Assembly (NCBI GenBank): GCA_018266835.1
Contig: JAFDZP010000002.1
Coordinates: forward strand, 779,302-843,301
Source of the DNA: Bacteroidota bacterium
GTDB lineage: Bacteria; Bacteroidota; Ignavibacteria; Tepidaquicellales; Tepidaquicellaceae
Direction: 5' to 3'
Length of the DNA stretch: 64,000 nt
The notes under the pieces were generated by a model that saw only the letters and a program-made list of their open reading frames with translations, was not told where the DNA came from and searched no databases. The translations under genes and the position numbers were made by a program. Numbering within the stretch: the first letter of the stretch is position 1; every line of letters starts with the position of its first letter. Positions 9,487-64,000 of this stretch are shown here, one piece after another.

Positions 9487-9993
9487 ATGAAATTTATCTG
9501 GATAAGCGGGTCAATTAATTCAGGCAAAAGCACAATCGCCGCTGAATTGAATAAGAGAATTAGGAAATCTGTAAACATCGAATGTGATTCATTACGGCAT
9601 TTTGCAACGCATGAAAATCTTGAAACAATTGGTGATTACATTTCTACAGACGCATTAGACCTTGCAAAGAAATGGATTGAAAGAGGTTATCTGCCGATAG
9701 TCACATGGCCAATGTATGGCGAAGGATTAAAGAAGCTGATAAGTTATTCTAAAGAACTTGGCATTGAACCGGTTATAATCAACTTAATTCCTTCCAAAGA
9801 AACTGCCAAACAAAACAGAGGAGAAAGAGAACTTACAGAAAAAGAATTTAACCGGATTGAGTATATGTACGAAGTTGAAAATATCGGAAATCCTGAACTG
9901 GGATTTTCGATTGACAATTCTAATCAAACTGTTGACGAAACCGTAAAAGAAGTTATGGCACATATTTCAGAAATATCAAAATCCTACTTATAA
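9487..9993 (+). CDS. Small P-loop NTPase/kinase of unknown specificity
   Basis: Walker A ISGSINSGKST. 168 aa. The 3' end overlaps the convergent folC stop by 10 nt. Confidence 0.5.
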   Translation: MKFIWISGSINSGKSTIAAELNKRIRKSVNIECDSLRHFATHENLETIGDYISTDALDLAKKWIERGYLPIVTWPMYGEGLKKLISYSKELGIEPVIINLIPSKETAKQNRGERELTEKEFNRIEYMYEVENIGNPELGFSIDNSNQTVDETVKEVMAHISEISKSYL

Positions 9994-20727: not shown

Positions 20728-21120
20728 GACCTGACAGTTCGCCATGGCTAATTAATCCTGTCAGGTCTAGCTATAGTCACATTAATGTAACATTTTTTTG
20801 ATACCGCCCCCTTAATCCCCCTCCTTGTAAAGGAGGGGAAACTTAATTTCAAAAAAGTCGGGAAATAGTCGGATATTATTATTCCTTATTCTCTATTAAT
20901 TATTCATTCGTTAAATTAGTCGGAAAATAGTCGGGTTTTATTTTGTCAAGATTTTAAAAACAATTCAGCATAAATTTTTTCTGATTCTTGATGAATTTTT
21001 GACGGATTTCTGCAAAATAAAAAGCCATCATTGTACTAACTTTACGAATGTCACATTATGTAACATTTTCATTTTGTTTTAAAACCTGGCAGGATTAAAT
21101 CCGCCATGGCGGACTGTCAG
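20728..21120. repeat. MITE-like structured element. Its ends are hairpins that are inverted copies of one another (20728-20767 gacctgacag[ttcgccatggctaattaatc]ctgtcaggtc; 21086-21120 ctggcag[gattaaatccgccatggcgga]ctgtcag). It has internal 18-bp direct repeats, tcacatta(a)tgtaacatttt boxes at 20777 and 21051, and an embedded REP-like hairpin.
   Basis: Read directly. The loop of the right hairpin is the reverse complement of the left loop (gattaattagccatggcgaa versus gattaaatccgccatggcgga). Direct repeats (a/g)tcgg(g)aaata(a/g)tcgg(a/g)t sit at 20700, 20857 and 20919. No ORF is present. Confidence 0.5.
20800..20848. repeat. REP-like GC-rich hairpin element (gataccgcccccttaatccccctccttgtaaaggagggg)
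   Basis: Near-identical to 63550-63588 and related to 1626-1660, 63463-63508 and 63646-63679. Confidence 0.7.
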
Positions 21121-62225: not shown

Positions 62226-63368
62226 TTATGAGTTCAACACTTTTTCGTAATATTTTTCATACATGGGCACAATGTTATCTTCCTGGAAATACTCTGCCCT
62301 GGCGCGGGCATTTTTTGCAAAGAGCTCATATCTTTTCGGTAATGTAAGCAGCTCAATTGCATATCTTGCCATTCTGTCCACATCTCCGATTTCAGCAATG
62401 TAACCTGTTTCGCCGTGAAGGTTTAACTCAGGCAATCCGCCGACACTGGACGAAATTACCGGTACTCCGCAGCTCATTGCTTCAAGCGCAGAAAGTCCGA
62501 AGCTCTCTGATTGTGACGGCATAATGAATATGTCAGCAATAGAAAGTAGCTCAACCAGCTCTGTCTGCTTTCCAAGGAATTTTACTTTGTCGAAGATATC
62601 AAGCTCGCGAGCAAGTCTTTCGCATTCACCTCTGTCGGGTCCGTCACCGACGAGAATTAATCTTGACGGTACTTTTTTATTAACTTCATTAAAAATCTTA
62701 ACGACTTCCGGTACACGCTTTAATTGACGGAAGTTTGAAATGTGAATAAGAATCTTCTCACCTTCGGGAGCGTAATTTTTTCTGAAGCAGGTGTTCTCTT
62801 TCCCGTCTAATCTTTTATACTTCTCAACATCGATAAAGTTAGGAATGACCTCTATATCTTTTACAATTTTATAATTCGAAAGTGTCTTATCTTTTAAGTA
62901 TTGCGATACTGCTGTAACTCCGTCTGACTGCTCAATACTAAATTTCATCGTAGGAAGAAAGCTAGGCTCTAATCCTGTTAAAGTAATATCGGTTCCGTGA
63001 AGCGTAGTTATAAACTTTATATTCTTAATATTTCCGTTCTGACTTTTTATAATTTCGCGGGCAAGGAATGCGCTAGTGGCGTGAGGAATAGCATAGTGCG
63101 CATGGACTAAATCAATCTCGTGAAACTTTGCGACTTCGACCATCTTGCTCGCAAGTGCAATGCTGTACAATGGAAACTCAAATAACGGATAATTATTTAT
63201 TTCTACTTCGTGATAAAAAATATTTTCAACGAAGGCGCTTAGCCTCATAGGCATTGCATAAGAAATAAAATGAATTTCATGACCGCGGAGAGCGAGAGAT
63301 TTGCCAAGCTCGGTAGCTACAACTCCGCTGCCGCCGTAGGTTGGATAACAGGTAATTCCTATTTTCAT
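62226..63368 (-). CDS. bshA: N-acetyl-alpha-D-glucosaminyl L-malate synthase (bacillithiol biosynthesis glycosyltransferase, GT4)
   Basis: N-terminus [40 protein letters not shown] matches the BshA signature ([22 protein letters not shown]...RGHEIHFIT). Confidence 0.8.
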   Translation of the reverse strand: [380 protein letters not shown]

Positions 63369-63462
63369 TTTTAGAAGAAATTTAATAAATATACTTCTAT
63401 TATAAATTAAGTTAAATGTATTACGGGAATATAATATGCTATTAAACGAAGTTTTGATTTTT

Positions 63463-63508
63463 AACCACCCCCTACCCCCTCCTTGAAAAGGAGGGGGACT
63501 AGTTTATT
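63463..63508. repeat. REP-like element copy (aaccaccccctaccccctccttgaaaaggagggggact)
   Basis: Hairpin ccccctcctt-gaaa-aggaggggg. Family members are at 1626, 20800, 63550 and 63646. Confidence 0.7.
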
Positions 63509-63549
63509 CTCGTTTCGATGTTCAATGCTTTGAAAAAAAATTTACAACT

Positions 63550-63588
63550 GATACCGCCCCCTCAATCCCCCCTTATAAAAAGGGGGGG
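63550..63588. repeat. REP-like element copy (gataccgccccctcaatccccccttataaaaaggggggg)
   Basis: The 5' half is identical to the 20800 copy. Confidence 0.7.
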
Positions 63589-63645
63589 GAAGCAAAGAGT
63601 GGCCCCGCGTTCATATGGAAGTGGGACATCCCGAAACAAAAATAG

Positions 63646-63679
63646 TTACCCCCCCTGCCCCTCCTTGAAAAGGAGGGGG
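63646..63679. repeat. REP-like element copy (taccccccctgcccctccttgaaaaggaggggg)
   Basis: Same hairpin as the 63463 copy. Confidence 0.7.
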
Positions 63680-63734
63680 ATTGTCCTCATATAAATTTAT
63701 TTCGAATTTACAATTTGTAATTCATATAGGGGGA

Positions 63735-63836
63735 TGTGGCGCCGCGTCCCGCTTCCAGCGGGACCTGCCGTAAGCACGAAATTGAAATTTCAATTTCGTG
63801 CTTACGGCACCCGGACTTTCAGTCCGGGCGGCGCCA
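63735..63836. other. GC-rich 102-nt cloverleaf (four-way junction). An outer 10-bp stem gtggcgccgc/gcggcgccac encloses hairpin gtcccgc-ttcca-gcgggac, a perfect 40-nt palindrome ccgtaagcacgaaattgaaa|tttcaatttcgtgcttacgg, and hairpin cccggac-tttca-gtccggg.
   Basis: All stems are perfect and read directly. GC content contrasts strongly with the AT-rich flanks. It is not a tRNA (no T-loop or anticodon features). Confidence 0.6.
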
Positions 63837-63904
63837 CAATGTTTTCCAGAGCGTTTTTGTTTCTCTATTGTTTTTAATTACGCCTTGTAATAATTTACTT
63901 GCGA

Positions 63905-64000
63905 ATGAGATACAAACCATACATTTTTTTCATTCCCCTCTTAATTCTTTTTTCCTCGTGCAACTCAATCCAGTTCAATCAGGCCCTCCAGATAAATGAA
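63905..64000 (+). CDS. Lipoprotein, N-terminal fragment running off the window end
   Basis: MRYKPYIFFIPLLILFSSCNS signal peptide with lipobox. The ORF is open to position 64000. Confidence 0.45.
   Translation, partial: MRYKPYIFFIPLLILFSSCNSIQFNQALQINE

Follow-up and report, generated by a model that had tools for sequence, protein, structure and literature searches.

Comparative analysis of a 64,000-nucleotide stretch from the genome of an uncultured Ignavibacteria bacterium (in the following simply referred to as the window) revealed, at positions 63735-63838, an intergenic GC-rich nested palindrome of about 103 bases that can fold into a four-armed cloverleaf. Judged from its sequence and those of its relatives, this is a real non-coding element, conserved and under structural constraint, that belongs to no family described so far, and its putative function is most likely exerted as DNA. 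It is restricted to a small Ignavibacteria clade, where it is a single-locus element (285 kb of DNA searched). Our best reading, to which we would assign slightly less than an even chance, is that of a nested palindrome selected at the DNA level, which would form a cruciform or a single-strand four-way junction between two divergent promoters and whose arms would be kept complementary by template switching.

The outermost part of the element is an inverted repeat with perfectly complementary arms. The original prediction had recognized this repeat correctly and given it 10 bp; according to the repeat finder it comprises 11 bp. Its 5' arm (TGTGGCGCCGC, 63735-63745) contains the motif GGCGCC and is 100% complementary to the 3' arm (GCGGCGCCACA, 63828-63838), which is unchanged among carriers. 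Three hairpins are enclosed by these arms. Hairpin 1 (63746-63764, GTCCCGC-TTCCA-GCGGGAC) is followed by a single unpaired C and by the central palindrome (63766-63809), which is perfect, as had been proposed, with a length of 44 nt (22-nt arms with no spacer) in place of the 40 nt given for it. Hairpin 3 (63810-63828, CCCGGAC-TTTCA-GTCCGGG) shares its final G, at 63828, with the outer arm. Both flanking hairpins were detected in the sequence and by a hairpin scan with the 7-bp stems and the ttcca and tttca loops initially described; once the T-A pair inside the loop is counted, they become 8-bp stems with a 3-nt loop. The stem lengths are then 11, 8, 22 and 8 bp. What looks like a T-G pair at the foot of hairpin 3 is more readily accounted for by an outer stem of 10 bp. 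The central palindrome, which occurs once only within the 64-kb window, has a GC-rich base and an AT-rich apex (ATTGAA..TTCAAT).

Folding calculations predicted a four-way junction on either strand of the element. Using RNA parameters, the element reached -87.5 kcal/mol on the plus strand and -84.3 kcal/mol on the minus strand (z = -12.8 and -13.0), a stability attained by 0 of 200 shuffles. DNA parameters gave -56.1 kcal/mol for the element (z = -11.9) and -23.9 kcal/mol for the central palindrome as a DNA hairpin (z = -10.3). All pairs in the window copy (45/45) are Watson-Crick pairs, with zero G-U. The window has a GC content of 35%, and the element together with the adjoining hairpins forms the sole GC-rich non-coding islands in its 64 kb.

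The element is located in the intergenic region (63369-63904) between two divergent genes. On the minus strand, the neighbor identified by ORF and homology is bshA (62226-63368), encoding N-acetylglucosaminyl-L-malate synthase; the window BshA is 100% identical to NCBI MBS1492938.1. On the plus strand, a PQQ-type beta-propeller lipoprotein gene (BamB-like) starts at 63905 and is cut by the window end (63905-64000). This start had been predicted and agrees with the visible signal peptide and lipobox; the statement that the element is followed by this gene and not by a reverse transcriptase was correct as well. In the case of the L060 orthologue of the lipoprotein, the closest resemblance is to BamB, whose models matched below their cut-offs, and Pfam PQQ_2 gave a match. 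Between the element and the gene there is a linker (63839-63851, plus strand) and a conserved block (CGTTTTTGTTTCTCTATTGTTTTTAATT.CGCCTTGTAATAATTTACTT, 63852-63904, plus strand), which is nearly identical across all carriers. From this conservation, the block is probably the promoter of the lipoprotein gene itself. The core of the block (TATTGTTTTTAAT...AATAATTTA) occurs in L070-73 as well, which are element-less and have a 141-nt intergenic region. Comparison of the intergenic regions showed that the linker is variable in sequence and kept in length, the element always standing 13-14 nt upstream of the putative promoter block.

On its other side, toward bshA, the flank of the element is unalignable between species. 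All lineage-specific hairpin insertions lie on this bshA side, away from the lipoprotein promoter block. Hairpins accumulate in the intergenic region of every lineage: C-rich ones in the window and in L065 and a single one in L060. In L061, L085 and L090, the same spacer holds another nested element, which is five-way and separate from the one described here. The C-rich hairpins of the window were located by the repeat finder and the hairpin scan at 63468-63680, with a 91-nt spacing; they are of the CCCCCTCCTT-GAA-AAGGAGGGGG type and occupy 63475-63497, 63567-63587 and 63658-63678, thus corresponding to the three REP-like hairpins that had been noticed beside the element. Members of this hairpin family are also present at window position 20818, in L069 and in L070. 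The smallest intergenic region is that of L077, consisting of the bshA promoter block, the element, a 13-nt linker and the lipoprotein promoter block. Another 40 ORFs of the window belong to ordinary core genes, among them those for RelA/SpoT, ribosomal proteins, EF-Ts, LeuRS, MnmE and T9SS-tailed proteins. No reverse transcriptase, transposase, RAYT, integrase or invertase was detected among these 40 ORFs, nor within 10 kb in the homologous loci of L065, L069, L077 and L085.

To describe the distribution of the element, the orthologous intergenic regions of relatives were retrieved through BshA homologues. The element is found at the same site in L060, L065, L066, L067, L068, L069, L077, L078 and, in diverged form, L085, and the relatives carry seven distinct sequence versions besides that of the window. 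Absence from relatives at this locus had been named as the outcome that would speak against the prediction; what the comparison revealed was the same locus occupied in related species, with compensatory changes. The length is 102-103 nt in carriers, with a 93-nt variant in L065-67 that has a shortened central hairpin. No element is present in L070-73, L062 or L063, and because these related genomes do without it, the element is dispensable. Several Logan contigs end inside the region and are thus uninformative on presence. The pattern of gain and loss (in L060 and L085, not in L070) would fit one gain and one loss; independent gains in separate lineages could also have produced it.

A covariance model built from five sequences gave exactly one match per locus in the 285 kb of the window and its relatives, always at the bshA/lipoprotein site, and no further copy was matched in the 64-kb window. 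Broader searches of single parts were less specific. A scan of the genome collection with the hairpin-1 19-mer yielded 57 loci in many phyla, which are generic GC hairpins, i.e. terminators, REP-like units and nested palindromes. Applied to these 57 loci, the covariance model detected no homologue, the best one (L040, 31 bits) having hairpin 1 alone in common with the element. BLASTN of 63700-63860 against phage and plasmid collections returned nothing or 28-32-nt chance matches, and scans of viral contigs returned two chance matches for hairpin 1 and none for the palindrome core. The pattern GTGGCGCCGCGTCCCG-N55-85-GCGGCGCCAC had three chance matches in a metagenome collection, all in high-GC coding DNA; this collection is evidently without these lineages and uninformative on copy number.

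The carriers belong to different species, with bshA DNA being 80-87% identical and third codon positions 54-67%. Across six distinct carrier sequences, the 20 outer-arm bases are nevertheless identical, and little variation is seen in hairpins 1 and 3. Hairpin 1 is closed by a C:G pair in the window and L060 and by A:T in L065-69 and L077, and hairpin 3 of L060 shows one switch from G:C to A:T on both sides. In the case of the central stem, 9 of 21 pairs changed on both sides between species. Its lower half is almost wholly different between species and still paired, and its apex is retained as ATTGAA-N0-3-TTCAAT. In L085, the two innermost pairs of the outer stem changed on both sides (GC/GC to TG/CA). 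The hairpin loops have effectively 3 nt in every homologue, and the central palindrome of the window is without any loop. A possible kissing of the two small loops was discarded, these being complementary in L069, in 4/5 positions in L065 and L077, and not in the window.

Pairing across the six sequences was observed in 96.8% of cells, compared to about 35% with slid partners. Two-sided changes amounted to 11 pairs and 21 cells, values that 0 of 500 shuffles reached. For these pair counts, L077 was used in reverse-complemented form and L085 was left out, because MAFFT misaligned the inverted and the diverged copies. It is important to add that covariation by itself cannot separate DNA from RNA. 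An asymmetry of G-U versus A-C was considered as a strand test and dropped, mismatches being too scarce.

In L077 and L078, the entire element is reverse-complemented with unchanged flanks. Between L077 and L069, identity is 88/103 when reversed and 38/103 as read, and the covariance model scored the inverted copy at 111 bits on the opposite strand versus 78. At the level of single loops, TTCCA of hairpin 1 in the window is the reverse complement of the L069 loop TGGAA. Orientation is uniform within species, with four assemblies in forward orientation (L065-68) and two inverted (L077 and L078). Therefore, the flip is a rare evolutionary event and not a visible phase switch.

An additional, decayed and truncated copy was found by alignment at 63599-63645 (plus strand), comprising the outer arm, hairpin 1 and the start of a central arm of the short type. 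Window positions 63545-63650 show 80/100 identity to the ‘C-rich hairpin plus 5' half of the element’ of L065, with an alignment score of 114 compared to 38 +/- 6 for shuffles, and a C-rich hairpin precedes the truncated copy as it does in L065. The fold of this second copy is no better than that of shuffles. As the complete copy is perfect, the relic decayed and the arms invariant, this comparison argues for purifying selection on the element rather than mere recency.

Several other explanations have to be weighed against a selected DNA structure. The element may be a function-less by-product, either REP-like hairpins clustered in a nested arrangement (BIME-like or left over from a MITE) or a set of template-switch palindromes that persist in a permissive spacer by mutational dynamics. 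The same spacer does gather other hairpins in every lineage and holds a second, decayed copy in the window; moreover, the presence of the element is patchy, with L070-73 missing it, L070 has elsewhere a lone hairpin whose 8-bp stem is identical to that of hairpin 1, and many phyla contain the hairpin-1 19-mer as part of generic GC hairpins. Still, we regard this explanation as rather unlikely, in view of one copy per locus in 285 kb, always in the orthologous place, of arms that stay invariant though synonymous sites are near saturation and the adjoining spacer is unalignable, and of a relic copy that decays while the complete copy does not. REPs bear GTAG or CGTC tags, go together with RAYT genes and are present in tens to hundreds of dispersed copies. 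The GTAG or CGTC tag is absent here, and neither the window nor the neighboring 10 kb of the homologous loci contains a RAYT, IS200/IS605 or other transposase gene; together with the single copy per locus in the 285 kb searched, this disfavors the REP/BIME composite served by a RAYT that had been suggested. The perfect 11-bp inverted repeats around a short segment directly upstream of the lipoprotein gene, found in both orientations in nature (L077 and L078 versus L069), could likewise be taken for an inverton or recombination site, in which an invertase would flip the 82-bp interior and so switch expression of the surface lipoprotein. The originally proposed recombination site is partly supported by the inversion in one species. 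However, with orientation fixed per species in the four forward and two inverted assemblies, a quasi-symmetric interior in which a promoter scan recognized no promoter, a conserved putative promoter outside the repeats and no recombinase gene within 10 kb, such a switch appears very improbable. As no mobile-element gene is nearby, there is no local enzyme for either the REP/RAYT or the inverton explanation.

A different possibility is that the element acts as RNA, be it a small stable RNA of tRNA size or, more plausibly, a very stable structure that stops divergent or antisense transcripts of the back-to-back promoters from colliding. Selection on a single-strand fold classically shows itself in compensatory changes, and these occur in all three inner helices, with two more in the outer stem of L085; pairing of the outer stem requires a free strand, and a short T-run (AATGTTTT) is found 3' of the element on the plus strand of most carriers. 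Searching the whole window against Rfam 15 at gathering thresholds gave 0 matches, and at E <= 10 the region 63350-64000 gave sub-threshold noise only (at most 30 bits) with no tRNA or tmRNA. This Rfam check had been asked for, and since no family matches the element, it would be new if it were an RNA. On the other side, the comparison of carriers uncovered no conserved promoter leading into the element on either strand, there is no canonical terminator tail, and the fold is strand-symmetric with virtually no G-U and loops of 3 nt only. The element also functions, or at least persists, in either orientation, and in the minimal intergenic region, that of L077, the bshA promoter and any additional promoter would have to fit into about 88 nt. 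On these grounds we consider an RNA unlikely, while giving it more weight than a by-product, and the stable stand-alone ncRNA brought up in the original prediction is not supported, in view of the promoter comparison, the symmetry and the loops. Even further down ranks a retron msr/msd locus or a degenerate tRNA or tRNA-like gene, which has a negligible probability. It is true that the junction is roughly tRNA-like, sharing with tRNA and tRNA-like RNAs a four-way junction of about 100 nt, and that the cloverleaf without tRNA identity foreseen at the outset was confirmed by folding and by ARAGORN (0 tRNA or tmRNA genes in the window). However, tRNAs have a 7-bp acceptor stem, D, anticodon and T arms and conserved loop residues, unlike the element with its stems of 11, 8, 22 and 8 bp, much longer overall, its 3-nt loops without conserved D-, T- or anticodon-loop features and its perfect junction (0-1 unpaired bases). 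Of the retron layout (a1/a2 inverted repeats around msr and a long msd hairpin, with a conserved branching G), flanking inverted repeats and a long hairpin exist here; a single-stranded msr region is missing, no branching G could be identified, and the symmetric three-hairpin interior differs from that of known retron ncRNAs. With ARAGORN and Rfam (tRNA and retron models included) giving nothing and no reverse transcriptase in the window or, in the relatives, within 10 kb of the locus, both the retron and the tRNA readings were removed, barring a reverse transcriptase that acts in trans.

Some further candidates were rejected. As regards an intrinsic terminator, the terminator scan reports the C-rich hairpin 63475-63497 only and not the element, and the flanking genes are divergent with none ending here. 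A small ORF (63734-63877 or 63736-63999) can be reconciled with neither the inversion nor the compensatory pattern. For lack of a GG-N10-GC motif, a sigma-54 promoter with enhancer sites upstream was dismissed.

Returning to the DNA-level palindrome, a possible mechanism can be outlined. According to the twin-domain model, negative supercoiling caused by transcription arises between divergent promoters. Divergent transcription would thus place the DNA between the bshA and lipoprotein promoters under negative supercoiling, and the palindromes, the central 44-bp one first, would extrude as hairpins or as a cruciform. As a 44-bp perfect palindrome with an AT-rich center, the latter should be well suited to extrusion. 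The nested arms would add to the turns absorbed and yield a perfect four-way junction. The extruded structure might absorb torsion, block or position proteins, or be recognized at the GGCGCC arms by a protein specific for structure or sequence; the invariance of these GGCGCC-containing arms suggests recognition by a protein of this kind. As an outcome, the lipoprotein promoter 13-14 nt away may be modulated or insulated. Complementarity of the arms would be kept partly by selection and partly by template switching between the arms during replication, where one arm is copied from the other. In this manner, multi-base ‘compensatory’ changes could be fixed in one step and loops flipped, and the single inversion of the whole element could be accounted for as well. 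Extrusion in vivo, any regulatory or insulating effect and the contribution of template switching are inferred.

Strand symmetry, nearly no G-U, 3-nt loops, the occurrence in both orientations and the lack of an inbound conserved promoter among the carriers speak, as sequence features, in favor of DNA over RNA. For comparison, triloops make up about 3.5-6% of loops in rRNA data (PMC8794818). The element also has the make-up of cruciform-type elements, having a 44-bp perfect palindrome and further inverted repeats upstream of a putative promoter block. Two observations run against action as DNA: stems of 7-8 bp extrude poorly from duplex DNA, and the outer stem, with its two covarying pairs in L085, pairs only when the whole strand is free. 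Because of this need for a free strand, RNA or replication-associated single-stranded DNA fits the outer stem better than a simple cruciform.

The arms have evolved with their pairing left perfect, with numerous compensated differences within a single stem, with inverted loops and with one inverted interior, which matches the template-switching footprints described in two studies (PMC8794818; PMC8604942). There, template switching is reported to create and maintain perfect hairpins, homogenize the arms of inverted repeats and invert spacers. Quasipalindrome mutation of this type (PMC8794818; PMC8604942) resembles the element in perfect arms, multi-base compensated changes and inversion of loops or spacers. 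Unlike the element, it is a mutational process and not a functional class, and it leaves the invariant GC-rich arms and the proximity to the promoter unexplained. Selection beyond template switching is still required to account for arms that do not vary, a constant position and persistence across this divergence.

Several known systems resemble the element in part. In Vibrio parahaemolyticus, an intergenic inverted repeat at exsBA extrudes as a cruciform that affects the nearby promoter and serves as a transcriptional silencer until it is attenuated by the regulator HlyU (PMC10325908). That system has a single cruciform over a cryptic promoter and a known binding protein, whereas here the design is a nested four-way one, upstream of a putative promoter and known from sequence alone. 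The inverted terminal repeats of parvoviruses and AAV have an outer stem around small internal palindromes, with flip and flop as mutual reverse complements. The element shares with them the outer stem with inner palindromes and the two reverse-complement configurations. In contrast, these repeats are the ends of linear single-stranded genomes, with two internal arms and Rep-mediated terminal resolution; the element lies inside a bacterial chromosome, has three internal arms and no HUH/Rep gene nearby, and was flipped only rarely. REP/BIME sequences of enterobacteria and pseudomonads are similar as GC-rich intergenic palindromes, sometimes in mosaic clusters, for which an interaction with supercoiling and DNA-binding proteins has been suggested (PMC3733652). 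They differ from the element in copy number, here one per locus in 285 kb, in its fixed four-helix architecture within an outer stem of its own, in the conservation of one orthologous site with no RAYT nearby, and in its hairpin feet GTCC/CCCG.

Altogether, the element is best filed with cruciform-forming or palindromic intergenic elements, with a fair chance of something more novel. We see some possibility, well below an even one, that it represents an undescribed class of conserved, orientation-independent DNA four-way junctions, through which supercoiling itself, or a protein specific for the structure or for GGCGCC, would couple or insulate divergent promoters, or else a new family of structured, tRNA-sized RNAs confined to Ignavibacteria. 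In bacterial chromosomes, documented cases of selected DNA secondary structure are rare; conserved folds are mostly assumed to be RNA, and palindromes to be terminators, protein operators or selfish repeats. The element unites deep positional conservation, invariant GC arms, a central stem constrained in structure only and a clean flip of the whole unit. If it is transcribed instead, it would constitute a new structured RNA family. As DNA, it may offer a natural example on which to study whether divergent promoters are regulated or insulated by cruciforms or four-way junctions, and to study the share of ‘compensatory evolution’ that stems from template switching as opposed to two-step selection.

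The 19-mer of hairpin 1 of the cloverleaf, GTCCCGCTTCCAGCGGGAC, was detected by our genome-collection scan at 57 loci of very different phyla (L003-L059; examples are L040:4837-4956, L032:6290-6420, L045:299-341 and L048:2537-2575). The hosts include CPR bacteria, Desulfobacterota, Verrucomicrobiota and Zixibacteria, and the 19-mer is often present in several copies per genome, close to contig ends and within clusters of other perfect hairpins. In L040, from Saccharibacteria, it forms one arm of a different four-way junction, and L045 and L048 carry it inside a longer palindrome built from itself. Additionally, a lone hairpin, GTCCCGAT-TCTTTTC-ATCGGGAC, whose 8-bp stem is identical to that of hairpin 1, was found in the relative L070 (5805-5827); the cloverleaf is absent from this genome, and the intergenic region that harbours the hairpin is an unrelated one. 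Regarding the outer arms, the only two GGCGCC sites of the 64-kb window are located there (63738-63743 and 63830-63835). This count is in itself unremarkable, as about two sites per window are expected from base composition alone.

C-rich hairpins that follow the pattern CCCCCTCCTT-NNN-AAGGAGGGGG make up a family that recurs across several species and loci: in the window at 63475-63497, 63567-63587, 63658-63678, 20818-20838 and about 1638-1658, and in relatives at L069:7525-7547, L069:11153-11175 and L070:5173-5197. The two arms correspond to Shine-Dalgarno and anti-Shine-Dalgarno sequences. Some copies lie directly 3' of stop codons, a terminator-like placement. Three lie at an exact 91-nt spacing in the promoter-to-promoter spacer, where a terminator is not expected.

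Immediately upstream of the element, the repeat finder identified an 8-nt direct repeat, AGGGGGAT, at 63674-63681 and 63728-63735. The repeats enclose a 46-nt AT-rich segment, and this arrangement (63674-63735 including the repeats) looks like a small insertion with its target-site duplication. In the relative L069, a lineage-specific insertion of ~290 nt (9640-9930, minus strand) is located between bshA and the element and carries its own long imperfect inverted repeats, e.g. GGCTTGAACCAAAAAGAACCAAAAAGTTCAAGACC.

In a sister lineage, this intergenic region holds a second multi-branched nested palindrome (L085:9690-9800, L061:25-125 and L090, all on minus strands), in which four small hairpins are placed inside an outer stem, ACACCCTC/GAGGGGTGT (DNA fold z = -3.7). 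In L085 its first modules are partly repeated further along.

Independent Logan assemblies were broken within the bshA/lipoprotein intergenic region, the contigs stopping 142 nt (L079-L084) or 105 nt (L086-L088) upstream of bshA. Long perfect palindromes or repeats would be likely break points of short-read graphs, and absence of the element called from contigs that end in this way is therefore unreliable.

The central hairpin differs grossly between strains that are otherwise nearly identical. L066, L067 and L065 share with L068 the same BshA protein, 97% identical bshA DNA and an intergenic region that is almost identical outside this hairpin, yet one allele is a 45-nt perfect hairpin and the other, the shortened type of L065-67, is 35 nt (11-bp stem, 13-nt interior). 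In the window, the relic copy has the short type and the intact copy the long type. The co-occurrence of both types therefore suggests old allelic variation and recombination between alleles.
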